Notes under the pieces: generated by a model
What the model was told of the DNA's origin: nothing
What the model saw: only the letters and a program-made list of their open reading frames with translations
Databases searched by the model: none
Part shown: one piece after another, positions 251-60,141 of the stretch
Position numbering within the stretch: position 1 is the first letter of the stretch
How the letters are laid out: each line of letters opens with the position of its first letter
Translations under genes and position numbers: made by a program
NCBI RefSeq assembly: GCF_018977255.1
Contig: NW_024704743.1
Coordinates: 3,226,001 to 3,290,000 of the forward strand
Source: Callorhinchus milii
Taxonomy: Eukaryota
DNA length: 64,000 nt
Direction: 5' to 3'

Positions 251-14037
<13,787 letters not shown>

Positions 14038-14169
14038 GAGTGCACGTGAGTGCGTGTCTTAAAGGAGCGAAGTGCTGATAGCACTTGACTCGCAAGCGAG
14101 AGGACCCCGGGGTTCGAGGTCCCGCCTGTGGTTACTCCTTTTATATATTTTTTAAAAAAAAGACCTACT

Positions 14170-14650
14170 CTCTATCCCTTCAACCTCGCGCACTACCGGT
14201 GCATTTCATGGCTTCCTGGCCAAAGCCCTGGAGCGCACGGTCGCAAACCAATCTCGCTCGCACCTCGCCCTCCACTCCCTGCTCGAGCCCCTCCCAGTCC
14301 GGTTCCTGCCCAGCCCGCAACACTGAGACGAGCACTCGTCGACGTGACAAGTGACGTCCTCGCTCTCTCTGACCAGGACTTCCTCTGCCTCCTCGTCCTC
14401 CTGGACCCCCTCTGTCGGGTTCGAAACAGTCGCCCCCACCTTCCTCCTCCACTGCCTCCGGAACTCTCTCCCTCAGTCCCTCACCTTGCCCCCCGCCCTT
14501 CCCACCTTCATATCTAACCTAAAGACTTTCCTTTTTGAGCGTGCTTACGGTCACCTTCCTCTCCCCACCCCCACCCCGCTCCCCCTGACTCGGAGGTCAG
14601 ACTCCGCCACTGTCAGGCGCTCCGGGATGCTATATAAGAGCAAGTTGTTG
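14170..14650 (+). mobile_element. L2-clade LINE fragment (RT region plus 3' tail)
   Basis: Frameshifted RT-like peptide …ALVDVTSDVLALSDQDFLCLLVLLD…, followed by the locally common L2 tail ending gcaagttgttg. Confidence 0.75.
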
Positions 14651-14680
14651 ATCTGTAGTGTTAACCTCCTGTCTGTGCAG

Positions 14681-14718
14681 TGCGGTGCGAGCGGAAAGTC
14701 TGCTGATGAATGATCAGG
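14681..14718 (+). CDS. ADCK5: ADCK5 exon 14, start only (inverted, runs into gap)
   Basis: tgtgcag|T GCG GTG CGA GCG GAA…; with the AG left over from exon 13 it gives …LLMAK-S-AVRAESLLMNDQ, like ADCK5 …MAKRAVRG…; phase 2 matches. Confidence 0.75.
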
Positions 14719-14743
14719 NNNNNNNNNNNNNNNNNNNNNNNNN
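14719..14743. other. Assembly gap (25 N)
   Basis: Run of N. Confidence 1.
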
Positions 14744-15519
14744 TGCAGTGTTTAAGATGCCAAAGGAACTAAATCACGTAGACAATGATAAGCTGTTTTA
14801 TTTTGTACTGAACAGTCGATCCGGAGGAGGTGGTCTGCGATTCAAGAGGAGTAAATTAAAAACTTGCAAACTCCACTTAAACCAGAACTCCGCCACCCAC
14901 ATAATCACCCACACTAAACTCCATAACCCCATCACACCAGTTCTTTCCAGGCTCCACTAGCTCCTCATCACCGAACAGATCGACTTCAAGATCCTCTCAC
15001 ATGCCTTCAAATCCCTTCTTGCCCTGGCACCTCCCTGCCTCTCCAACCTGCTTATGCCCCAATCCACTACCCCTTGCCTCTGCTCAACTGACTCTGGCCT
15101 CCTGCATGTCCCTCGCGCCTTCTGCTTGCCGTGCCTTCAGCCGCTACGCCCAAAACACTGGAACTCTCAATCTCTATCTCTCCACCTTGCCACCACCTTC
15201 TCCGTCTTCAGGTCACGTCCCCCCACCTTGGTGTCGTGCTCCGCTACTGTCGAGTGCCCTGAGACACTACCCTCCGTTACAGTGGGGCGCTATGGAAATG
15301 CAAATTGTTGTTGTTGTCATCATCATCGCTTTCTACAGTCTTCCAGTCTTGTGCGGACAGCAGGAACCAGTAGGGCTGCCCCTACCCCAACCTGCAGCGA
15401 GGTCCCTGCTTCCCTCACTGTGGCGTGTGAGAGGCCATTCAGACTGCGGGTCGGTCCTTAAGTTAATTTCTATTGTGTTCAATGGGAACCCGAAGGGCTG
15501 CAGAGGTTCGAACCATTAC

Positions 15520-15600
15520 CTGTAGGACAGATAGTGCACCATTCTTTCCGTATCCTGAACACACAACAATCTCCAGGTCTGGCTCCGGATTATTCTGGAA
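15520..15600 (-). CDS. CPSF1: CPSF1 exon 16 (inverted)
   Basis: Minus strand ttccag|[27 protein letters not shown]|gtaatg. Confidence 0.93.
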
Positions 15601-17008
15601 CTGGAAAGCGACACAGGGAAGGAAGTTAGGCAGTGTGCAACAGAACAGAACGGGAAAATCTTAACCCAGAAGACTAGTGGTATCGTTCAGCTGTTAAAAA
15701 CCTTGTTATTTCCTTCCTATAATCAAATTACATTGGAGTCCTGTAGAATGTTGTCAGAGCACTCGCTTTGCAAGCGAGAGGATCTGGGTCCAATTCCCGG
15801 GCAGGGCGAAACTTTGGGCAGGTTTCCTTACTCCACACGCCTCTGTTTACCTATAATAATAATAATCCTTGCATTTGATATAGCGCTTTTCACGTCGGGA
15901 GGACATCCCAAAGCGGGAGGACGGGAGGACGTTACCTAGCAGTAAGTAGGAACCTGGTTGTTAGTCGATTGTCGGATCGCTTTTCCAAGGATAATAAATT
16001 TAAAGTGCTTCACAGAATATATTGTAAAGTGGAATGACTGTGCAAATGCACGTACTCGCATCCACATCCCCATAGCTGCTCCCCAATTTCTGCGTGCCAT
16101 TTTGACACCCACCCAGCTGACCAAAAAATCAAGTCCTTCGCAATCCCCCAAATAAAATCAGTCGCTCGCTCTGTGCCTGTTTGTGGGACGTTGCTGTGCG
16201 CAAACTGGCTGCCTCGCTTCGCCCACAAAATTACAGAGTTACTTAATTTGCTTAGTTGCATGAAAGAGAACCAGTCGATTTCATTTGCGCCTGTACAATT
16301 ACTTCGGCTAATTGCATTGGTTGAGGAGTTGACAGCATGACAACCAACGGGACTTGCAGTTACGGCGATTTACGGCGAGGAATGAACTCCACAAGGCAGA
16401 TCCACGGGGGGTGAACTTTCTTTGCAAACGCTGTACTCACACTCGTTTTCAAATCCCTCGCGCCTCCCTATCTATCTGACCTGCTTACCCCCCCACTCCA
16501 ACACCCACTGCCTCTGCTCGGCCTGGCTCCGGCCTCCTGTTTGTCCCTCGTCCCCTCTGCTCCACCCTTCAGTGGCCGTGCCTTCAGCCACTAGCCTCAG
16601 GAACTCTCTCCCTCAATCCCTCCACCTTGCCCCCTCCCTTCCCACTTTCAAATCTCGCTTAATGACCTTCCTTTTTGATCGTGCTTATGGTCACCTCCCC
16701 CTTCCCTCTCCCCCGGCTCGGTGTCAGAGACCGCTACTGTCAAGCACTCTGGGATGCCACCCCTCGTGCCGTGTTTCGCCCACAAAATACACAGTCAATC
16801 CACTTTACAGTATATCCTGTGAAACGCTTTGAGGCGCCTCGATGACGTGATAAGGCGCAATTATTATTATTATTTCTATTGAGGTAAAAGAACTTGACAA
16901 AATCAAACTGTGGCATTCTCTAACAGCTATAAGATACAGCTGCAAGCTGTAAGACACACAGCAAAGATGGGAATTCCCAGTCACAAGGATAAGGCAATCA
17001 TTACTCAC

Positions 17009-17083
17009 CTCCTCAGAGAGGAAAGCAGGTTCTCCCATTGAAGCATTTACACAAGGACCGATATTCAATATGCTGTCACAAAC
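17009..17083 (-). CDS. CPSF1: CPSF1 exon 15 (inverted)
   Basis: Minus strand ccacag|[25 protein letters not shown]|gtgagt. Confidence 0.95.
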
Positions 17084-17691
17084 CTGTGGTAGAAAGAAGA
17101 AATTATCTTAATGCACAGAGAATGAGGATGTGGAACATATTGCCGCAGCATCTATTAAAGCTGAGTTCTGTAGCTTTGTGGTTTGCTGTAACCACTATTA
17201 TTACCCCCAGAAAACCAATCTGCCAATCGATTAACAATCCGGTTCCCACTTACTGCTAGGTAAACGGAGGTGCGTGGAGTAACAACAACATTACATTTGT
17301 ATAGCGCCTTTCACGTCAGGAGGACGGCCCAAGGCGCTGAAGGAAACTTGCCTCAGGTTTCTCCCTTCCCGGGAGTAGAACCCAGGTCCTCTCCCTTGCG
17401 AGGCGAGTGCTCTAACCACTAAGCTACAAGAGGGTCGGCCGGATATCTCATTAGGATCTGCTATTTACACAGCCCGTTGCGAAGATCGCAAATTTTAATC
17501 CTAAAACCGCTGTAATTCACAGCAAGAACACACACATCCACGCGAGACACGCACACGAGGTGCACATGAAAACACACACACTCACAGCAGACTTTTATCA
17601 TTCCCCCAAATGGTAATGGAAGGAAATCCTGTAAAGAATTGTGAAAGGTGCAACCAAGACAGCCCCTTGGAGGGTTAATCCTAGACTTTAC

Positions 17692-17745
17692 CTCAAAGGA
17701 ATATGTGGCCAGCTGAGTGCCAGACTGTGCTTCATTACCATAAAC
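17692..17745 (-). CDS. CPSF1: CPSF1 exon 14, 3' half (inverted)
   Basis: Minus strand VYGNEAQSGTQLATYSFE|gtaaag with no acceptor in front; continues …DEIE exactly. Confidence 0.93.
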
Positions 17746-17776
17746 CCGTTTGCCAGTGGGGTGGGGAGGGGGTTAC

Positions 17777-18035
17777 CTTTTGGCCATGAGAAGGTAGCGG
17801 TTGGCGGGGGAGCCCAGGGCGCTGTGGATGCCTCGCACGGTGTTGATGTTCCTGAAGACGAGCAGCATGGGCCGGGGCAGGGCCTTCAGCACCTGCATGA
17901 TGCGGTCAAAGTGCTGAGTGGCCATGTCCCTCATGTAGCGCGTCTCCTCGCGGCTCAGGACGTTCGCCAGGTACAGCGTACTCACTCGCATGTTGATGGG
18001 CCTCTGCATCAGGATCTCACAGAACAGGAAGTAGT
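17777..18035 (-). CDS. ADCK5: ADCK5 exon 13
   Basis: [12 protein letters not shown]…[40 protein letters not shown]. Confidence 0.95.
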
Positions 18036-21000
18036 CTGGGACACACAGAGTGAGAGAAAATGCGGTCAAGTGTAAAGACTATTTATTGGCAAATTTATTT
18101 CGACCATTTATTGTTAGCCAAGACACCCGGAGAAATGTCCTCTCCACCCCCTCGAATAGCATCATAGGATCTTCGGTTTAACAACTCACCCCCACTGGAG
18201 GGGAGGGGGGGGGTGGCACAGTGTAGAGCAAACCCCCACCTCCCTCAACCATCCCCTCGTGGTGTCAGCCTGAACACTGAGCTCATTGTTCCGCTATCCA
18301 TTTCCACACCGCGACTGTACAGTGACCCTCTCCCACACACACACACACAGTGACTGTACAGTGACTCTCTCCCACCCACACACAGTGACTATAACAGTGA
18401 CTCTCTCCCACACATACACACAGTAACTGTAACAGTGACTCTCCCACCCACACACAGTGACTATAACTGACTCTCTCTCCCACACACACACACAGTGACT
18501 GTACAGTGACTCTCCCACACACACACAGTAACTAACAGTGACTCTCTCCCACACACACACAGTGACTATAACAGTGACTCTCTCCCACATACACACAGTA
18601 ACTGTAACAGTGACTCTCTCCCACACACACACACACACACAGTGACTGTAACAGTGACTCTCTCCTACACACACATTGACTGTACAGTGCCTCTCACCCA
18701 CACACAGCAACTGTAACAGTGACTCTCACCCACACACACACAGTAACTGTAACAGTGACTCTCTTCCACCCACATAGTGACTGTAACAGTGACTCTCTCC
18801 CACACACACACAGTGATTGTAGTGACTGACTGCAGTGAGGCTCTTTGAGAGGGTGGAGGTTGCAAGGATTATTTCCCCCCTGATGGCCCAGACAGTCTAA
18901 CCTTGGACACCCAGCTCCCAGGAGTATTTCCTCATATCAGCATCGTTGTGGATGATGATGGAACGCCAGAGTTTGCAGAGATTCTTCCTGTCCCTGCAAC
19001 ACAAACTCTGTCAACCCCAGCTCCGAGCATAAAACCGCCCCCCCGCCTCACCCCCCCCCGCCCCCACCACCCCTCACAACCCCACCCCCAACCCTCACTT
19101 TGCACCCTCACCCCCAACACCACCCCCTTACACTCCCACTCTCACCCCCTCCCCAACCTCATCCCCTCCCAATAGCCTTTATACAGGGTGAACAAAAATT
19201 CATGATATCTCCCTATTATCTAAAAAAAAAAATTTCTTTAAGACTTATTAGACATTGTGATGGTATCAGGACTTTTTGGTCACTCTGTACAAAGTCTCAC
19301 CCTGTAACCAGAGGGGCTGATGTCAGGAGCCGGGGTCAGGACTCACTCACCTCATACTGAGGAACTCGTACAGTCCGTGATCCAGTAGCACTAGCTGTGC
19401 TTGACCATCAGGCCCTCTCCGCACCAGTACTGTACAATGCACACAGACAGCGAGAGAAAGAGAGAACATCAGCCATCAGAGTGGGACACTCAACCCATTC
19501 ATCTCCTAATCAAGAATATAATGTGGACTCACACAGCTCAGTGGTTAGCGCACCGACCTCGCAAGCAAGAGGACCGAGTTCGATTCCCGGGCAGGGCAAA
19601 AGCTTACGCAAGTTTCCTTCTCCACACACACTGTTTACCTCCAGAAAGCAATCCGCCAAATGACTAACAACTGGGTTCCTACTCACTGCTAGGTGAACAG
19701 ATGCACATGGAGAAAGAAAACTTGCCTATGGTTTTGACCCGCCCTTTGAATCAAAAACCTGGTCCTCTCGCTTGCGATGTGAGCGCACGAACCACCAAAC
19801 TACAGGCCTCCACTAACAAGCTTACGAGCGCGTGTCTCCTCACGCCCTTGTAAAATTTACGAGGCACTTACACAGTGTCTCAGAGTCCTTAACAAAGGGG
19901 TTCCTTTACCCCAAACAATTCCTTCATAATTATTGGAAATAATAATATGTGCATTTGGAGGCCTATCATTATTTATTAATCACATCATTGGGAGCTTCAC
20001 AGGATTTTCCTGTAATATGTTAACGACTGCGTATTTTGTAGGTCAAACGCAGCAGCCAATTTGCACACAGCAGTGACCCACAAGCAACCATGCAGTGAAT
20101 GACCAGTTCTATCTGGCGGATATTGGACAGGACACCGGGAGAGAGAAACTCCCTTCTCCTTTCCAACAGCGCCGCGGGAGCTTTAACACCCACCTGAACA
20201 GGCACAGACGGGGCCATCGTTTAATGTCTCAGTCGAAGGAGGGATGAGCCACTTATAATCATAATTCTTGCCTTTGATATAGTGCCTCATCACGGAAAAG
20301 TGATCCGCCAAACGACTAACAACCGGGTTCTTACTTTACTGCTAGGTATAGAGGCATGCGGAGTAGGGAAACTTGCCCAACATTTCGACCTGCCTGGGAA
20401 TCGAGCCCAGGTCCTCTCGCTTGGGAGGCAAGTGCTCTGACCACTAAGCTACAGGACTCCACTTCACTAGTTCCTGATCGCACCTGAAGGTAAGGGTAAG
20501 CGTCCCTACAAAAACAACAACTTAATTTTTCTAGCACCCTTTATGCCAGACGGCATCTCGGGAGCATTTAACCGGGCCACTAGTTACTGAGTCTCAGAGC
20601 ACTGTCTGGCCTGGGATGTGAGGAGACACTGCCACTTACCATTTCCAGGGTGAGGATCAGCGTGGATAAAGCCCGTGTAAAATATCTGCTCGGCAAAGAC
20701 CCTGATCAGCTTGTCTGAAACCTGAGCCAAAGGAAGGAGGTTGAAAGAAAGCAGAGAGTTAGTACGGTCTGGAATGCACTGCCTGAAAGGGTCGGTGGAA
20801 ACATATTCAATAACAATTTTCAAAAGGGAATTGGATAGAAATTTGAAAAGGAAAAGCTTCCAAGGATATGGGCAAAGAGCGGGGGATTGGGATTGATTGG
20901 GTCGCTCTTCTAAAGAGCCGGCACAAGGGGGTGGGAAGAGAGGTGACTTTGGCCCAGTCAAAGAGTACGTTCTTAAGGCAGACTCTGAAGGAGGCGAGGG

Positions 21001-24000
21001 AATGGGTGAGGAATAGGAGCTGGGGAATGGAGGTCCAGAGGGTAGGGACAGAAAGCCTGACCGCTGATGGTAGAGCAGGCAGACGGGGGACGTGTAGCCG
21101 AGCAGAGGGAGGAGGCATGTTGGTAGGGTTTATGAAGGTCACAGAGATCGCGAAGGGATGCAAAAGTGAGGACAATCAGAACTTACGTCTTTCACATTCA
21201 CACCCCGCTCCTTCAGTTCCGCCAGGTTGGTGATTTTACACCCATCACAGTAATCCGCAGTCAGGACTCTCTGAGAGAAAGCAGACAGACTTCAGCCCAA
21301 ACACATACTCACTCAGCCCCAACCCTCAAACACACACACTCACTCACCCCCAACCCTCATACACAGCCCCAAACCTAACACATATACACACACACACACA
21401 CACACAGGTTGTACCTATTAAAGCTACACATTAAAGATAGAGCCCCATTAACCAATAAACCATCAAGCAATGGCTTAGGGCCCCCGGTCTGAGGGTTTCC
21501 TCTCTTAACTACACGCTCCCTCTCTCTTGCTCCCACTCTCCATGTTGCCTCACAACCCAAACACACACGTGCACACCACACACACAGGCACGCACAGTTG
21601 CACACACAACACATGCACCCCACCCCCACTCACACAGCCTGACTTGATCTCTCTGACTTCTAAACATCTCAAGTGTTAATGAGGATGGATGTAAAGTGTC
21701 GATCAGCCACTGACTGAATCAGTGATGTCCCCCTCGGCCTCACTCACCTTGCTGCTCTTGTCCCAGTATACCTTCGGGATGACCACGTATTTGAAGTCTT
21801 TGAGATCCTGGGAACAGCGCTCCGCGTTCCGGCCCTCATTCTCAAAGTCCAACTCCTGCGCTAGTGCCCCCTTCAGGTCCTGTTCCGGCAGAACACAAAC
21901 AAGGTCTTCAATAAATGGATGGATTGATAAGAGGCAACAGAGCGCTCCAGTGCTACTGCTCCCTTCCTCAGTGGCTCCTGCTTAGCCAGGCTCATTCTGG
22001 TTTTTTTTTTTTGAGTCAGTCAGGTGTCTAACACACTCAGAAACCCATCACCGTGCTCAATAGAAACATAGAAAGAAGTAGACCATTCAGCCCCTCAAGC
22101 CTGTTCTGCCATTCTCTCAGATCATGGCTGATCTGTACCTTAAGTCCAATTACATGCCCTTGCCCAGTATCCCTTGATACCCTGACCTAACAACCATCTA
22201 TGCATCTCGGCATTGAAAATGTGAACGGATCCAGCCAACATCCACAGCCTTTTGGGGGGAGAGAGTTCCAGATTTCAACTACCCTTTGTGAGTGAAAAAC
22301 TGCCTCCAAATTTCACACCTAAATGGCCTAGCTCTAATTTTAAGACTATGCCCCCTTGTTCTGGATTCCCCCACCCGAGGAAATAGTTTCTCCTCAAGAG
22401 TAACGGTCTCCAAACCAAACTGAGAATTCCATGTATCCCACTTACACGTGAGTGTTGGAACGGAATCCTTGGAGGGACACATCCTGCTTACCAAATCCGG
22501 GCAGTCTTAGCTGCAGGTTGGCGAGAGCCAAGGGTTGTGGGGGGGGGGGGGGGAGGACCCCCAGAGTGCGCGTTGGGGTAACTGCTGGAGTGTAACCAGC
22601 TAAAACCGAACACTTGTGCTCATGATAGCAAATTGGCTGCATGCTCCTCCCTCCCTCTGGCTCGGCGGGCGAGAGCTCACCTGTGTCAGCGTGACTAGCC
22701 CTGAGCCTGTTCAGCGCAAGAGGACAGTGTACCTACCCGGAGCACCCAGCGGAAGCCAAACTTTGGATGCATCAGTTCAACGATGTCCAGGAGGAACTCC
22801 AGAGTCAGGATGTCTCCGTCAAACCGGTCCCGTAGATCGATGAACTGCACCTGAAACGTCCATGATTTAAGGTCTTCAGTCGTGATGTGAAAGAAGGGAA
22901 GGAGGGATCAAGGCAGAGAGATTGAGGGAGTCTCAAAGCTTCTGGGCGCAGTGGCTGAAAGCATGGCCGCCGATGGTTTAGTGGAGGGGATGAGGGACAA
23001 GCAGGAGAACAGAGCCAACCGAGCGGAGGCTGTGGGTAGTGGAGTGGGAAGAAAGCAGGTCAGAGAGGTAGAGAGGTGGCAGGGCATGAAGGGATCTGTA
23101 GGCAAGAGAAAGGTGCACATTAAACGGTCTCTTTACCATGTAAGTGCACAGTGTAAGTGTGACTTCACACTATATAAGTGTAATTGGCCTGTGATTGAAG
23201 GGGGGTAAATTCAGAACGAATCTACGCAGACACTATTTCAGTGAACGAGTAGTGAACCTGTGGAACAGGCTCTCTAGGGAGATGGTTGAAGCAGGAAGTG
23301 TTGATTCCTTCAAACACAGATGAGTTTGTTTTCTATTAGGAAATAACATTATGGGATATAGTACATAGATAGCTTGGGACATATCGTGCATGCGACTGTC
23401 AGGAAGGTGGAAGGTGAACTAGGTGGATCTTGGTCTTGTATTTCTTATGTAATCTCTCACAATGTGAAGTGCACAGTGTAAGTGTGACATCTCAACAACA
23501 AAAACAACGTACAGGTGTATCATGCCTTTCATGTCGGGCGGACATCCCAAGGCGATGCAGTCAAGGATTTGGACCCGAGCAGAGGGTTGGCATCAGGAGG
23601 GCGGGAAGGGTAAGGGTAGGAGGGTGAACCAAAGGCTCGGTCGAAGAGGAGCGTCTTGAGATGTGCCTTGAAGGAGGAAAGGGACGGAGCAAGGTGAAGG
23701 GATTGCGGGATGGAGTTCCAAAGAGTGGGGGCAGAGAGGCTGAAGACCTGACCGTCGATGGTGGAGTGGGCCGTACGGTGGATGCGGAGCAGGCCGGAGC
23801 CTGCTGAGCGGGGTGGAGGGAGCGGACAGGTTGATACGGCAGTGCACACACATAGCATGAGCCTCACAGAAGGGGAGTGGAGCGATACCTACTTTGACAG
23901 CCACAGGAGTCCCGTCAGGCAGCTCTGCCTTGTGTACCTGGGACAGGCTGGCGGCCGCGAATGGCTCATAGTCAAATTTCCTGAAGAGCCTGTCTGGGCT

Positions 24001-27000
24001 GGTGTTGAAATCTTCCCAAAATAACACGTCCACCTGGTGACAGCACAAACAGCAGCTGACACTACATCATAATAATTGCTGCTATCGATACAGCGCCTTA
24101 TCACCTCTTCGAGACGTCTCAAAGCGCTTCACAGGATATACTTCAAAGTGTGTATTTTGTGGGTGAAACGCGGCAGCCAATTGCGCACATCAGTGTCCCG
24201 CACACAGTTGTGGATTGAGTGACCCAATCATTTTTCTTTGAAGGATTACTCCCGGAAAAGCGATTCGCCAGTCGACTAACAACCGGGTTCCTACTCACCA
24301 CTAGGCAAACAGAGCCATGTGTGTGGAGCAAGAAAACTTACCTAAGGTTTCGTCCCCTTCCCGGCATCAAACTTGCAAGTGGACCCAGATATGATTCCCG
24401 GGCGGGCCGATTAGATGGAAAATTAATAATTAATAATAGATCATTACAGCACCGAAACAGGCAATTCAGCTCAACAAGTCTAGGGATGGGGGACTTTAGT
24501 TATGTGGAGAGGTGAGAAAAGCTGGGATTGTACTCCTTAGAGCAGAGAAGGTTAAGGAGAGATTTAATAGAGGTGTTCAAAATTCTGAGCGGTTTTGTTA
24601 GAGTAGATAGGGAGAAACTGTTTCCACTGGCAACTGGATCGGTAATCTGAGGACATAGATTCAGGATAATTGGCAAAAGAACCAGAGGAAAGTTGATGAG
24701 AATTGTTTTTGACACAGAGAGTTGTTACAGTGTGGAATGCACTGATTGGATTATGGAAACAGATTCATTAACAACTTTCCCAACGGAATTGGATAGGTAC
24801 TTGAAACGCACAAACTTGCAACGGTATGGGGAAAGAGCGGGCAATGGGATTGATTGGGTGGCTCTTCCAAAGAGCCGGCACAGGATGGGCCGAATGGCCT
24901 CCTTCTGTGCTGTAATATTCTATGATTCTATTTAAGACTTTGGGTAATGAGATGGGACTCTTCCCACAGGAGGCGAGAAAGATGACGACAAACCAGTGAG
25001 AAACGTACCTCTTGTTCCATCCTTCTGAGGGCCTGGTCCTCCAGCACACGCAGGGTGTTCGTGTACTCTGGGGGCAGCAGGTGGTTGAAGGCACACAGCC
25101 CCTGCCCCAGTTTGATGTACAGGCCCCCGTTCTTGATGGCTCCCTCCACGATGTTATTCGCTGCTCGCTGGTGACAAGCGGACATTTTTGCTAAGTAGTT
25201 CTGGCTGTTCTGATGACAGGATTCAAAAAGAACATAGCAGTGTCACTAGTACACACTGGTACCTAACACAGCGCCTCTGTGCAAGGAAATGGTGCGTCAG
25301 CCTGGCTCACTGGGAGCACATTCGCCCCGGAGTCCGAAAGTTGTGGGTTGAAGCTCCCCTAGCACTGTGCTACGGTGGCCTCACTTTAGAGGATAGTTTA
25401 AAATCTTTGTCCTCGCCCTTCAAAGCCCTCCCTCCATTGCTTTGCTCCTCCCTACCTCTGTGACCTGCTAACCCCGTATCAACCTGTCCGCTCCCTCCGC
25501 TCAGCAAGCTCCGGCCTGCTCCACGTTCCACCGGCCGGCTCGCCCCATCAGCGGTCGGGTCTTCAGTGTCTCAGCCCCCACCCTTTGGAACTCCATTCCA
25601 CCGCCCCTTCGCCTCGCTCCCTCCCTTTCCTCCTTCAAGGTGTGTCTTGAGGCCCTCTTCTTGGACCGCGCCTACGGCCACCCTCCTACCCCCACCCTCC
25701 CTACCCTCCACCCTTCCTGATCCCAACCCCCGGCTCGGGTCCAAATCCCTGACTGTCCAGCGCCTTGCGACGTCCTCCTGACATGAAAGGAGCTATGCAA
25801 ATGTAATTTGTTGTTGTCGTCAGTGATAGTGTGCAGACTGCCTGATGGGCTGGCACGTGTGGCACTTGGCTCGGAGACTCGCTCATGGGTCTCATCAATT
25901 CTAAGCTGGACAGCATCTCTCTCGAATGTGACATTTGCTGGAATTTTGTGTGAACTCAAACCCGCGCAACAATAATAATTTATATCTACAACAACTTGCA
26001 TTTATATAAAGCCCTTCACGTGCGGTAGAGTCCCGGAGAGCTTGATAGTGACGGAGTCCGATACTAACCAGAGGGAGCGGGGGAAGTGACCGTAAGCACG
26101 ATTAAAAAGGAAGGTCTTTAGAGAGGGATTTGAAGTGGGGAGGGAGGGGGCGAGCAGAAGGAATTTAGGATAGAGTTCTACAGAGCGAAGTGGAGCAGAG
26201 TGGCTGAAAGTTCCTGATTTCACACCAGAGCAGAGCAGGCAGGGCATACCAAGTAGGTCTTTGCTCGGTGAAACAGGCGGACACAGGGGCCAGAGAGCTT
26301 CCAATGGAAGCCTGAACTAATAATAATAATCTTTGCATTTGATGTAGCGCCTTATCACGTCTTCGAGACGTCTCAAAACGGTATATTTCAAAGTGAATTG
26401 ACTGTATATTTTGTGGGAGAAACGCGGCAGCAAATTGCATACAACAGTGTCCCACAAACAGTCGTGGATTGAGTGACCAAGTTATTATTTATTTAGAAGT
26501 CGCTGGGAACACTCAGCAGATCAGGCAGCACCTATGGAGAAAAGAAAGTGAGTCAATGTTTTGGGTCCATGACCCTTCGTCAGAACTGGTGGACCTGAAA
26601 CGATGACTCAATTTCCCTTCTCCATAGATGCTGCCTGACCTGCTGAGTGTTCCCAGCGACTTCTGTTTTTGTTTCAGATTTCCAGCATTTGCAGTATTTT
26701 GCGTTTATTATTTATTTATTTTTGGTTAAAGGGATTATTACCCCCGGAAAGCGATCCCCCCAATCGACTAACAAGTGGGTTCCTACTTACTGCTAGGTAA
26801 ACAGAGGCGTGTAGAATAAGGAGACTTACCTAAGGTTTTGCCCTGCCTGGGAATCGAACCCAGGCCCTCTCGCTTGCGAGGCGTGTGCTCTAAGCTACAG
26901 GACTATGTTAAAATGTGAAAGTGGGGGGAGGGAGGAATACTTACCTCCTCCATTCCCCGCAGGTCAATGTTCATCGTCCACCAATAGTCTGTGGAGATTT

Positions 27001-30000
27001 TTATTCCGACGTGAAGAGACCTGGAATGCAAACAAAGGACTGTCAGATGGACTGATTTTCATGTGATTGATCTGTTCTTCAATAGGCAGCTCATGGAGCC
27101 TGACAGAAACTGCGGTGATGAAGTGCAGAGTTTGGTACAGGTCAGGAGATGGAGTTTTAATCAACAACAACAACAAATCACATTTGTGCAGCGCCTTTCA
27201 GGTTGGGAGGACGTCCCAAGGCGCTGGACAGTCAGGGATTTTGACCCGAGCAGGGGTTTGGTATCAGGAGGGGTAGAGGACAGGGAGGGTGGGGGTAGGA
27301 GGGTGACTGAAGGCACAGTTGAAGAGGACGGTCTTGAGACATGCCTTGAAGGAGGCAATGGAGGGAGCGAGGCGAAAGACTGATGGATGGAGTTCTAAAA
27401 GATGGGGACAGAGTGACTGAAGGCCCGACCGCCGATGGTGGGGCGGGTTGGGCGGGGGACGTGGAGCAGGCAGGAGCCTGCTGAGCGGAGGGAGCGGACA
27501 GGTGCATATGGAGTTAGCATATCACAGAGATAGGAAGAATATCAAGAGGTGTCAAGAGAGGTTTAGGCACTTCAACCCATTCAGTCTCATCTTCCCACAA
27601 TGGGGAGGACAAGTTTGCAGGGCTATGGGGAGAGAGAGCAGGGGAGTGGGATTGATTTGGATGGCTCTTTTCAAAGAGCTGGCATAGACATGACAGGCTG
27701 AATAGCCTCGTACCATACTGGGCTGCGGGCCTCAAGTCATCTAACCTGAATTTCCACCTCTCTTTGACATTTTTCTTCCTCAAATTACTGCATTTAAATG
27801 AGCAGTAATAGTTTAGCAGCTCAAGTGTTATTAAATGTTACGAGCCCTTTTGATAAAAATAATCCTTGCATTTGATATAGCACCTTATCACATTTTCGAG
27901 ATGTCTCAAAGCGCTTCGCAGAATATACTGTAAAGTGAATAGACTATATATTGTGTGGGTGTGAAACGCAGCAGCCAATTGCATACAGCAGTGTCCCACA
28001 AACAGTCGTGGATTGAGTGACCAAATTTTTTTGAAAAAATTTTTTTTCAAGGGATTATTACCGCCTGGAATGCGATCTGCCAACTAACAATAGGGTTACT
28101 ATTACTGCTAAGAGAGACGTGTGTGTGGAGTAAGGAAACTTGCCTACAGTTTCACTCTGCCTGGGCCGGGTCCTCTCGCTTGTCAGGCGAACGCTTCAAC
28201 ACTGGCGTCAATTGCGGTATTTACAGTGGCTGAGTGGGATTTATGCTCAAAGTCACGAGAGCTCACTCGAGGGAAGAGGAGGGAATAAGTGTGAGGTCCA
28301 CTCGCCTGAAGAAGCGACTGATGCCCTCAGCCAGGATCCTGAGCTGCCTTCGCTCCCGGGAGTCGGTCATGGAAAGCCTGACCCCGGCAGTGACCGCAAC
28401 GCTGACTGCAGTCCCCAGAAGCAGCTTCTTAACAAGGCCCCGTCGCCGAACATAGCTGTGTAAGGAAAAGTAGTCATAAGAACATAAGAGCATAAGAATT
28501 TGCTGGCGAAAGAAGACCAATGTCCATCTCACTCGCCTTCCACCATCCTGGCAGTCGCTTGACATGTCGTGTCCCAAACTATATACCTAATCCTCAGATA
28601 TTATTTTCTAGCAGAAATCTATCTAATTTGTTCTTGAAACAAACAACACGTTTTGCCTCCACCACCTGTCTCCCTCGGGAGCCTATTCCATACGTTTATT
28701 ATTCGCTCACTGAGGTAGTGTTTCCTGATTTGTTTTGAATTTACCCCCTTCAATCGCTGGTCGTGTCCTGTTCAGTGCAAAATAAAAACAGTTTATCATG
28801 GTCTACATTATCTAATCTCTTTAGAATCTTAAAGACTATAATCAGATCATCCCTCAACCTTCCCTTCTCCAACGTGAACATGATTTACATTTACACATCT
28901 CCTTTCATGTCGGCAGTACGTTTCAAAGCACTTAACACATTTGGCTGGGGACACGAGCTGGAGGGTGGGAGATCGAAGAGCTTGAGGAATGACTGAAACC
29001 ACGGTCAAAGCTTTGAAGATTGGGAAGGAGGGATTGAGCCAGAGGGTTTTGAGTTCCAGAGAGACATTGATCCAGGTGTGAGGTCTCCTTTCAGTTCGTT
29101 TAAATGGTTAAAATAAAATTGTTCCTCGGTATGGTGCAAATGCATTTATAGCCCAGGTACGGGATACTTTTGGATCTGACACACCAGCTTCCTGTGCAGC
29201 TTGCCCACCCCCTCCACCACCTCTCCTCTCAGGCCGCCGACACCCAAGTCCATGAATCCAGCTAGATTATGCCAACTCTCTGCTCTCTTCCCTTCACCAG
29301 CTGCAGACCATCCAGAGCTCTGCAACCCGTGCTCTTTCCTGTATTAGGCTCCGCGTGCCCTTCCTCACCCGGTTCCGCTGGCACCCCATCCCCAGCGGAT
29401 CGAGTTCAAGATACTCTTCCTAACCTTTAAATCCCTCTGTGGCCTCGCCACACCCGACCTCTGCGACCTCCGCAAACCATACCAATCCAGCCGCTCTCTC
29501 CATTCTGGGCACCGGCCTGCTTCACAAACCCCTGCCCCACCATCAGTGGGTGGGCTTTCAGCATACCCGTCAACCACGCTCTAGAACTTCATCCCTTCTA
29601 CTCCCTCACCTCTTCTCTTCCAAGGTCCGTAGCGGGCGGGCATGGTACATTGCTAGCAGCAACCTGATGACTGGCGACCACTTTGACATCAATCCTGTCA
29701 TCTGATTTTATGCAGCCAAACACCATGTTATAATGGGAGTCGGTATCACTGCGTATGAAGACTCCGACTGCATGATGGAGGAAGCCTTCAGTGAAGCTCA
29801 TACAATCACAATGGATCACACTAACTTGATCTCATCCTTCACCAACCAACCGACTATCCTCCCATTACACCCGTCCGTGGTAGTCAACCACTTTGGTTGG
29901 CCAACAAAATAAATGTTGCTCGATTGAATATTTCTTGATTCTTGGCATATATTAAGGAATATTGAACCAAGAAACATTGATTTTGCTGGCCAACCCAAAA

Positions 30001-30223
30001 AGGTTGTCCAACCACTATATTACAACATTGTTCTGAGTTCACCATCTCTGTCCCATGTGGTGAAGGAGTGTCAGACATGACCTCACCTCCAGGTGCTCAC
30101 ATTGAATTGCATCACGTACCTCATAGGCTGGGATCTAAACTGCCGACTGCAGATGATGGATGGAGCCGGGAGAGCCCGTCTCGGGCCCTGAAGCAATGCC
30201 CAGTGGCGTCCACACAGCCAAAC
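17777..30223 (-). CDS. ADCK5: ADCK5 (aarF/UbiB domain-containing kinase 5), exons 2-13
   Basis: Exons 30120-30223, 28306-28455, 26945-27020, 25009-25209, 23893-24033, 22737-22850, 21748-21879, 21187-21270, 20640-20721, 19351-19429, 18902-18993 and 17777-18035. UbiB motifs [41 protein letters not shown] and LLDHG are present. Exon 1 was not located. Confidence 0.96.
18310..18830. repeat. Minisatellite (~30-38 bp unit acagtgactctctcccacacacacacagtgactgta)
   Basis: Direct tandem copies with variable (CA)n. Confidence 0.9.
18902..18993 (-). CDS. ADCK5: ADCK5 exon 12
   Basis: [34 protein letters not shown]. Confidence 0.93.
19351..19429 (-). CDS. ADCK5: ADCK5 exon 11
   Basis: [29 protein letters not shown]. 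Confidence 0.95.
20640..20721 (-). CDS. ADCK5: ADCK5 exon 10
   Basis: [31 protein letters not shown]. Confidence 0.95.
21187..21270 (-). CDS. ADCK5: ADCK5 exon 9
   Basis: [32 protein letters not shown]. Confidence 0.94.
21748..21879 (-). CDS. ADCK5: ADCK5 exon 8
   Basis: [48 protein letters not shown]. Confidence 0.95.
22737..22850 (-). CDS. ADCK5: ADCK5 exon 7
   Basis: [42 protein letters not shown]. Confidence 0.95.
23893..24033 (-). CDS. ADCK5: ADCK5 exon 6
   Basis: [51 protein letters not shown]. Confidence 0.95.
24480..24935 (+). mobile_element. CR1 LINE 3' fragment
   Basis: …gagcagagaaggttaaggagagatttaatagagg… and tail ttctatgattcta. Confidence 0.85.
25009..25209 (-). CDS. ADCK5: ADCK5 exon 5
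   Basis: [49 protein letters not shown]…RRMEQE; AG/GT. Confidence 0.95.
26495..26704. mobile_element. Penelope-like-element-derived palindromic repeat nested in a SINE
   Basis: Inverted arms (agaagtcgctgggaacactcagcag… / …ctgctgagtgttcccagcgacttct), a degenerate hammerhead core on the minus strand, and a flanking ttattatttattt direct repeat. Confidence 0.65.
26945..27020 (-). CDS. ADCK5: ADCK5 exon 4
   Basis: [29 protein letters not shown]. Confidence 0.93.
28306..28455 (-). CDS. ADCK5: ADCK5 exon 3 (GC donor)
   Basis: [49 protein letters not shown]; donor AG|GCGAGT. Confidence 0.88.
29877..30015. mobile_element. Palindromic MITE-like element (hAT-like ends)
   Basis: About 64-bp imperfect inverted arms with an ~11-nt spacer; ends resemble CAGTGGTNGNCAACC. 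Confidence 0.55.
30120..30223 (-). CDS. ADCK5: ADCK5 exon 2
   Basis: cctag|[34 protein letters not shown]|gtacgt; 104 nt, phase fits exon 3; basic, acid-free sequence like a mitochondrial presequence. Confidence 0.8.
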
Positions 30224-37243: not shown

Positions 37244-37986
37244 GGCCAGGTGGCCCCCCCCCTCCCTGGCGGCCAGGTGGCCCCCCCCTCCCTGGCGGCC
37301 AGGTGGCCCCCCCCTCCCTGGCGGCCAGGTGGCCCCCCCCCTCCCTGGCGGCCAGGTGGCCCCCCCTCCTCCCTCGCAGCCAGGTGCCCCCCCCTGGCGG
37401 CCAGGTGCCCCCCCCCTCCCTGGCGGCCAGGTGGCCCCCCCTCCCTGGCGGCCAGGTGGCCCCCCCCTCCCTGGCGGCCAGGTGGCCCCCCCCCTCCCTG
37501 GCGGCCAGGTGGCCCCCCCCTCCCTGGCGGCCAGGTGGCCCCCCCTCCCTGGCGGCCAGGTGGCCCCCCCCTCCCTGGCGGCCAGGTGGCCCCCCCCCTC
37601 CCTGGCGGCCAGGTGGCCCCCCCCTCCCTGGCGGCCAGGTGGCCCCCCCCTCCCTGGCGGCCAGGTGGCCCCCCCCTCCTGGCGGCCAGGTGGCCCCCCC
37701 CCTCCCTGGCGGCCAGGTGGCCCCCCCCCTCCCCTCGCGGCCAGGTGGCGCCCCCCCTCCCTGCGGCCAGGTGGCCCCCCCTCCTCCCTCGCGGCCAGGT
37801 GGCCCCCCCCTCCCTGGCGGCCAGGTGGCGCCCCCCCTCCCTCGCGGCCAGGTGGCCCCCCCCTCCCTCGCGGCCAGGTGGCCCCCCCTCCCTGGCGGCC
37901 AGGTGGCCCCCCCCCCCTGGCGGCCAGGTGGCCCCCCCTCCCTGGCGGCCAGGTGGCGCCCCCCCCTCCCTGGCGGCCAGGTGGCC
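37244..37986. repeat. GC-rich minisatellite (~25-26 bp unit ggccaggtggcccccccctccctggc), roughly 29 copies, runs into gap
   Basis: Direct tandem copies differing mainly in C-run length. Confidence 0.95.
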
Positions 37987-38011
37987 NNNNNNNNNNNNNN
38001 NNNNNNNNNNN
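37987..38011. other. Assembly gap (25 N)
   Basis: Run of N. Confidence 1.
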
Positions 38012-38582
38012 CCCCCTCCCCCCCCCCACCCATTCTCCCCCCCCCTTCCCCCCCCCCCCCCCCCCACTCCCCCCCACCCCCCCCCCCCCCCTCCCCCCCC
38101 CCACTTCCCCCCACCCCCCTCCCCCCCACACACCCCCCCCCCCCCCACACCCTCCCCCCCCACACACACACTCACACACACTTCTCCTCCCCCCCCACAC
38201 ACACACACTTCTCCTCCCCCCACACACACACTTCTCCTCCCCCCCCACACACACACTTCTCCTCCCCCCCACACACACACTTCTCCCCCCCCCACACACA
38301 CACTTCTCCTCCCCCCCCCCCCCACACACACACACTTCTCCTCCCCCCCCCACACACACACACTTCTCCTCCCCCCCCACACACACACACTTCTCCTCCC
38401 CCCCCACACACACACACTTCTCCCCCCCCCACACACACACTTCTCCTCCCCCCCCCCCCACACACACACACTTCTCCTCCCCCCCCCCCATACACACACT
38501 TCTCCTCCCCCCCCACACACACACACTTCTCCTCCCCCCCCACACACACACACATTTCTCCTCCCCCCACACACACACACAC
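38012..38582. repeat. Poly-C tract and minisatellite (cacacacacttctcctcccccccc)n
   Basis: Low-complexity tandem copies. Confidence 0.95.
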
Positions 38583-39369
38583 TCCACCCTCCCCAGCATC
38601 CACTCCCTTCCCCGTTCATGTCAGGTGGATGTCCCATAGTGCTGGACAGTCAGGGATTGCACCGAAGCTGGTGGTTGGGATCAGGAGGGGTGGAGGGTGG
38701 GGAGCGGTAGGAGGGTAACTGAAGGCACAGTCGAAGAGAAGGATCTTGAGGCACACACACCCCACCCCCCTCAAACACCTCCCTGTACTCCTCCACCATA
38801 CACTCCCCCACACCCTCAAACAAGCCTCCCACAATATAGTCTCCCTTCCCCCTTTCTCTCCCCCTAAAAACACCCACACTCCCCCCCTCGGTCTTGCCTC
38901 CACCTCCCCTGTTGTGTGGGTTGTGTGTTTCAGTGGCGTGCCTGCTTGACAGTATGAAATGTGGTTGAGGCTGTAGATGTTCTTCATACATATTTGTGTG
39001 CATCAATCACTAATATTTTTTTTCATTAACAGATGCTGGAGCCTTTGGGAAGTCCCACAACATTCCAGATGATGCTGGTAGGCCTTATTTGACGCTTTAG
39101 TCTTTCCTACATGAGAGAGAAGGGCGGGGAGAGTGTGGCACAGAGAAAGAGGGGAGAGCAGCACAGAGACAGGAAAAGGGACAAAATTAAGCAATTTACG
39201 CCTTAAAATTGATTTGAATGAAATGTTTGGTGTTATGGAGACCAATTCAGCGGCTAGACCATGCCCATGATGTCCCGAAGGAAGCGAGGAGATGAGTACC
39301 CAATCAATGTGAATTTTGATGTAGTGGGCAATGTAGGCCAGGATAACCTGGAGGACAACACCGAAAATC

Positions 39370-42422: not shown

Positions 42423-60141
<17,719 letters not shown>

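Follow-up and report, generated by a model that had tools for sequence, protein, structure and literature searches.

The window analysed here is a stretch of 64,000 nucleotides (C2:3226001-3290000) of G000, a 991.5-Mb assembly in 1762 contigs, and protein comparison showed its exons to be identical or near-identical to proteins labelled Callorhinchus milii. It carries CPSF1 on the plus strand from 251, ADCK5 on the minus strand from ~30223 and exons of PUF60 on the plus strand after 42400 (Table 1). CPSF1 is an essential gene. Its assignment as the CPSF1 orthologue follows from both sequence and CPSF160 domains: the same-species protein P0124 carries PF10433, PF23726 and PF03178 (Pfam), one exon matches CPSF1 in the PDB with an E-value of 1e-20, and of the three beta-propellers of CPSF160 the window holds only the first. 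The window exons of CPSF1 are identical to the record P0001 at 303 of 303 positions up to a 1-nt deletion near 9040, where one base is missing from the coding exon 8950-9059 and the frame is shifted; both P0001 and the second haplotype copy of this region (scaffold C70) are intact at this position, and hence the missing base is probably a consensus error. ADCK5 was likewise assigned as the orthologue by its Pfam ABC1 (atypical kinase) match and by best matches named ADCK5, and its window exons are 94-100% identical to the same-species protein P0127. The human genes CPSF1 and ADCK5 are arranged tail-to-tail, and in two catfish the pair carries adjacent locus tags (Q7C36_014016/014015 and PDJAM_G00136680/00136670). 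Both genes are also found together here and are convergent once the flipped block between them has been restored; the difference from the vertebrate pair lies in the assembled order only and is in no way biological.

The window contains two runs of 25 Ns, at 14719-14743 and at 37987-38011. The second is flanked by a GC-rich tandem repeat (~22 bp) and by C-rich repeats (region 37250-38600). Residues 1-8 of ADCK5 found no match within the window, and this gap or its surroundings may therefore hold the first exons of both ADCK5 and PUF60. The PUF60 exons were placed at 42426-53134 (+), and the exon at 52975-53133 shows 100% identity with many vertebrate PUF60 proteins.

Table 1. Features at the CPSF1/ADCK5 locus (window positions) and of the flipped gene at a nearby gap (C2 positions)
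Feature	Position	Strand	Remarks
CPSF1 coding exons 1-12 (human-style 2-13)	251..12456	+	correct orientation; AG/GT ends at all 12, first exon donor only
CPSF1 exon 14, 5' part	13997..14038	+	end of left contig
Left junction	14037..14038		GG, common to right junction
Piece X2 (flipped)	14039..14718	+	680 nt; rest of ADCK5 intron 14039-14680 and 38 nt of next exon 14681-14718; belongs beside 17745
Internal gap	14719..14743		25 N, size unstated; stands for CPSF1 aa 508-1380 as numbered in P0124, plus ADCK5 aa 526-586; cuts ADCK5 exon after 38 nt
Piece X1 (flipped)	14744..17744	-	3,001 nt; CPSF1 exon 14 3' part 17744-17692, exon 15 17083-17009, exon 16 15600-15520; belongs beside 14038
Right junction	17745..17746		CC on plus, GG on minus
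ADCK5	17745..30223	-	correct orientation; 32-nt intron stub 17745-17776, long exon ~18035-17777, upstream exons to ~30223
Scribble-type gene	C2:3301457-3318117		exons 1-2 on plus (3301457-3303839); exons 3-8a on minus (3309504-3305090); PDZ exons on plus beyond gap

Two junctions and the restored reading frames

The original prediction described a base-precise inversion that splits a coding exon of CPSF1 and swaps the 3' ends of two convergent genes. The split of exon 14 was confirmed: the plus-strand frame reads ...DEIE to 14037 and meets a stop four codons on, and VYGNE... resumes on the minus strand from 17745, followed there by exons 15 and 16, both with AG/GT ends. Re-inversion of the block restores exon 14 to the base: it is then 95 nt long, has AG/GT ends and forms part of a stop-free frame of 202 aa across coding exons 9-15, in which 189 of the 202 residues are identical to aa 314-515 of the shark CPSF1 P0003. 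The reciprocal break in ADCK5 was also borne out, as after re-inversion the exon ending at 17777 splices in frame to 14681 through a restored GT-AG intron of 674 nt. The claimed swap of 3' ends was only partly correct: stubs of 3.0 kb and 0.68 kb are indeed exchanged, but the 3' ends themselves are not swapped, and the wording was overstated in that the internal gap takes the place of most of the 3' part of CPSF1 and of the end of ADCK5.

The GG microhomology reported for the junctions was reproduced and corresponds to a 2-nt overlap with three equivalent breakpoint pairs (14037/17746, 14038/17745 and 14039/17744). An overlap of at least 2 nt arose in 16% of 200,000 random blunt inversions simulated in the window; the GG overlap is therefore unremarkable, and its reading as a repair signature was rejected at this chance level of 0.16. 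It had further been stated that neither junction lies at an N-gap or in a shared repeat. With regard to repeats this holds, as no inverted-repeat arm crosses either junction among the 21 pairs listed for 13000-19000, but the 25-N gap within the block had been overlooked. Recombination between repeats was rejected, the nearest pair (I4, 14066-14106 with 17385-17425) lying inside the block. Reciprocal junctions that are blunt or share short homology are what a real germline inversion leaves behind, and they were found here; flips made by software produce them too. A clean, N-free and base-exact junction is no evidence for the reality of an inversion.

Missing sequence and the order in other animals

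The flipped block is not one whole inverted segment, and consists of 0.68 kb, 25 Ns and 3.0 kb, such that the internal gap lies 680 bases from the left junction and ~3,000 from the right. Past exon 16, 873 of the 1380 residues of P0124 cannot be placed in the window, and the same is true of 61 of the 586 residues of P0127. When G000 was searched with the CPSF1 tail (the last 873 residues, aa 492-1364 of the same-species protein P0002), no match at E<=1 was obtained among the best candidates scored; the whole of P0002 gave 22 matches, all within its first 498 residues, and the ADCK5 tail was absent among 17 matches. Since such searches score the best candidates only, the tails are to be read as ‘not found’ rather than as proven absent. 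A location for the rest of CPSF1 elsewhere in G000 was considered and rejected, given that the tail had no match and that PF03178 was matched on contigs C14 and C17 only; these two matches are presumably paralogues of CPSF1. The parts of the 3,001-nt flipped piece that were tested are single copy in G000. The inverted segment, which a real germline inversion would carry in full, is thus incomplete, and what stands in its place is the arrangement expected of an artefact, namely two short pieces that do not overlap, separated by a gap of unstated size.

The order of the locus in other DNA was assessed by comparing window 13700-18180 with 4 of the 24 public runs listed (X1, X2, X3 and X5; the run labels are unrelated to those of the flipped pieces). 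Runs X1, X2 and X3 represent three samples from one study and come from other animals than the source of the assembly; their contigs, of 885-963 million letters, cover introns, on which ground they were treated as genomic, and run X5 is, at a guess, RNA. In run X1 a contig of 642 nt (record 1) passes from 13740-14038 straight into 17744-17402, switching strand without a gap, with 299 and 343 nt on the two sides, and record 8 of run X2 makes the same un-inverted join on the CPSF1 side at 14036/17746. On the ADCK5 side, record 2 of run X1 joins 18180-17745 with 14039-14392, record 15 of run X3 also contains the un-inverted join, and record 9 of run X2 has its join at 17748/14036, in keeping with an intron variant of one base; in runs X1 and X3 this intron join is exact to the base. 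The CPSF1-side piece of run X3 ends at 14036, with 80 letters unlisted. The un-inverted order was thus seen in 2 of the 3 DNA-like runs on the CPSF1 side and in 3 of 3 on the ADCK5 side. No contig crossing a junction as assembled was present among the pieces listed for the four runs, whose contigs drop rare variants; a short contig of this kind could lie outside that listing, much of which was taken up by repeats. The unbroken passage of contigs through the junction points argues, from the behaviour of k-mer graphs, against these samples carrying a second allele. Run X5 contains exons 15-16 in spliced form, but none of its listed pieces lies at either junction, so that it favours neither order. 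Record 16 of run X3 extends 61 nt beyond 14718, and record 26 of run X5 carries a further 617 nt 3' of the ADCK5 exon at 17779, which indicates that sequence exists where the internal gap stands.

Full-length proteins of the same species are available for both genes (P0002, P0124 and P0127). P0124 (1380 aa) contains 17 residues translated from the intron tail before exon 14 (window 13942-13996) and then reads through DEIE|VYGNE; the translated intron tail shows this model to derive from genomic DNA that has the un-inverted order, and together with the runs it supplies independent same-species DNA in the order other than that assembled. In contrast, P0001 is a 444-aa ‘partial’ CPSF1 record that ends at the break, and it sits on a contig of 265,672 bases, the same length as C70, so that it reflects the same assembly and is not independent. 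The true order is the left contig (CPSF1 to mid-exon 14), piece X1, an unassembled middle, piece X2 and the right contig (ADCK5), where the unassembled middle comprises the rest of CPSF1 and the end of ADCK5.

Origin of the flipped block

The CPSF1/ADCK5 flip is very probably an assembly error and not biology: its description is true of the assembled sequence, but the animal itself in all likelihood does not carry the flip. What was observed is the true order of the locus in other animals, the lack of its middle part, the end of a contig at the left breakpoint, 25-N gaps of unstated size and a second gap-side flip. Mis-orientation during assembly, which the original prediction had preferred, is supported by the reads, by P0124, by the end of C70 at the breakpoint and by the flip at a nearby gap; the heterozygous inversion that it had offered as the alternative gained no positive support. 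C70 (265,672 b) carries the second haplotype of C2:3119852-3240038, with 56 substitutions and 31 indels in 30 kb. It terminates at the base equal to 14038, which makes the left breakpoint a contig end; at its far end C2 continues without a gap. The last 2.3 kb shared by C70 and the window lack SNPs; that this reflects a terminal read common to both was considered and rejected as weak, as SNP-free runs reach 8.2 kb.

It is highly probable that the flip consists of end-extensions into an unclosed gap that were written on the wrong strand. Two contigs would have been scaffolded across the gap, each contig end would have been extended a short way into it without closure (the two flipped pieces being the putative gap extensions), and the whole piece, X1-gap-X2, would then have been written reverse-complemented. 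The outcome of such steps would be two N-free, base-exact and reciprocal junctions at the old contig ends, with a 25-N placeholder inside. A candidate agent is long-read gap-filling software of the PBJelly type. PBJelly writes out a run of 25 Ns for overfilled gaps. Extension from both sides without closure, giving such ‘overfilled’ gaps, is described in passages of PMC3504050, PMC9635638, PMC9883250 and PMC7757076, and passages of two papers give 25 Ns as its gap threshold (PMC3504050, PMC6240028). The block resembles these overfilled gaps in that its putative extensions enter from both ends, that they do not overlap and that the gap is left open; it differs in that the putative extensions are reverse-complemented, which those passages do not describe for PBJelly. 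Nor do they mention the writing of 25 Ns for such gaps, and no description of strand-reversed gap extensions was found in the portions of the literature on gap fillers that were covered. Against this reading, there is no flip at the gap C2:3136208, and at the right breakpoint, of which G000 holds no second copy, no contig was seen to end.

An assembly fault of another kind is improbable. Here scaffolding or curation would have cut a contig at two points, or reversed small contigs, and the joins would later have been sealed without Ns. The un-inverted order in the reads and in P0124 fits this equally, and the 4.56-kb block flipped in place within a scribble-type gene fits a mis-oriented small contig as well; however, 680 nt is small for an independent long-read contig, and cutting and flipping alone leaves the absence of the middle from all 1762 contigs unexplained.

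Still less probable is a real inversion that extends from CPSF1 exon 14 into the ADCK5 intron and that the sequenced animal carried in heterozygous or mosaic form. It would have arisen by blunt or 2-nt microhomology end joining, the contigs having broken at the breakpoints and been extended with reads of the inverted allele. If true, it would constitute a null allele of both CPSF1 and ADCK5 on a single copy of the chromosome, with both junctions caught by the assembly. Natural simple inversions form through non-homologous or microhomology-mediated end joining and have blunt or microhomology junctions, and the block resembles them in its two reciprocal, base-exact junctions, its two common bases and the lack of a long repeat. 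A heterozygote could be viable, the read evidence comes from animals other than the source animal, and a graph that branches at a true heterozygous breakpoint would likewise make C70 stop at the last base in common, with the GG included. However, the block departs from such inversions in that its interior is missing, with a gap, that one breakpoint is a contig end, that no carrier was seen among the pieces listed for the three DNA-like runs and that flips recur at gaps. The middle of a real inverted segment should also be assembled somewhere and was not found, the GG overlap is at chance level, and the breakage of a second conserved gene by a gap-side flip ~61 kb away would call for two gap-touching inversions, which is unlikely. 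Finally, an inversion that is fixed or common in the species, which would leave both genes truncated or have them rebuilt through trans-splicing, is barely conceivable: P0001 ends at the break but derives from the same assembly, no supporting evidence was found, and it is contradicted by un-inverted joins at one or both junctions in all three DNA-like runs, by the full-length same-species proteins and by the motif DE[ILV]EV[YF]G, intact in 102 of the 120 homologues listed.

Other gaps of the assembly

Five 25-N gaps were surveyed in C2:3090001-3470000, three of which could be assessed, and flips were found at two of these (the internal gap described above and C2:3309650), the kind of recurrence expected of an artefact. 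C2:3309650 is the next gap but one, ~61 kb on, and adjoins a scribble-type gene that the flip cuts in the middle of an exon. The block concerned (3305090-3309649, 4.56 kb) lies on the opposite strand with one end touching the 25-N gap. Taken in order, exons 1-2 and 3-8a give one stop-free LRR frame of 248 aa, and AG/GT are present at each boundary as far as exon 8, where an N-free junction cuts the exon and no donor follows. This order is based on splice phases and LRR register, homologue searches having returned generic LRR proteins or clusters, and a pattern search within 50 kb found no further LRR exon of the gene. To judge from sequence, it is probably the same kind of artefact as the CPSF1/ADCK5 flip. 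It is one-sided and in place rather than a two-sided swap, and a single simple rule for the exact fault therefore does not emerge from the two flips.

At the gap C2:3136208-3136232, C70 contains ~145.5 kb (its positions 103,830-249,337) that are absent from C2, so that a 25-N gap in G000 can be huge. To the right of this gap, 83 nt (C2:3136233-3136315) are a direct copy of C2:3133740-3133819, 2.4 kb to the left, with 100% identity over 80 nt; the misplaced copy begins at GATC and joins the next contig over a common AGGA, without Ns. Pfam was scanned with 137 sequences, 133 of which were drawn from the 213 ORFs listed, and the 35 ORFs near the gap C2:3458315 gave no credible match.

The CPSF1/ADCK5 flip is of no biological significance and calls for caution over orientation errors beside gaps in G000. 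Annotation from this assembly shows CPSF1 truncated at 444 aa (P0001), and the nearby scribble-type gene is broken likewise; on these grounds, claims of gene loss, truncation or micro-inversion are not to be trusted where they concern sequence a few kb or less from one of its 25-N gaps. On contig C1, a SPRY1-type coding sequence with a Pfam Sprouty match lies on the minus strand at 848455-847457. On the same contig, the 3.3 kb to the right of a 25-N gap (842949-846187) is a direct duplicate of the left flank (836934-840219), with 98.2% identity and 21 gap openings.
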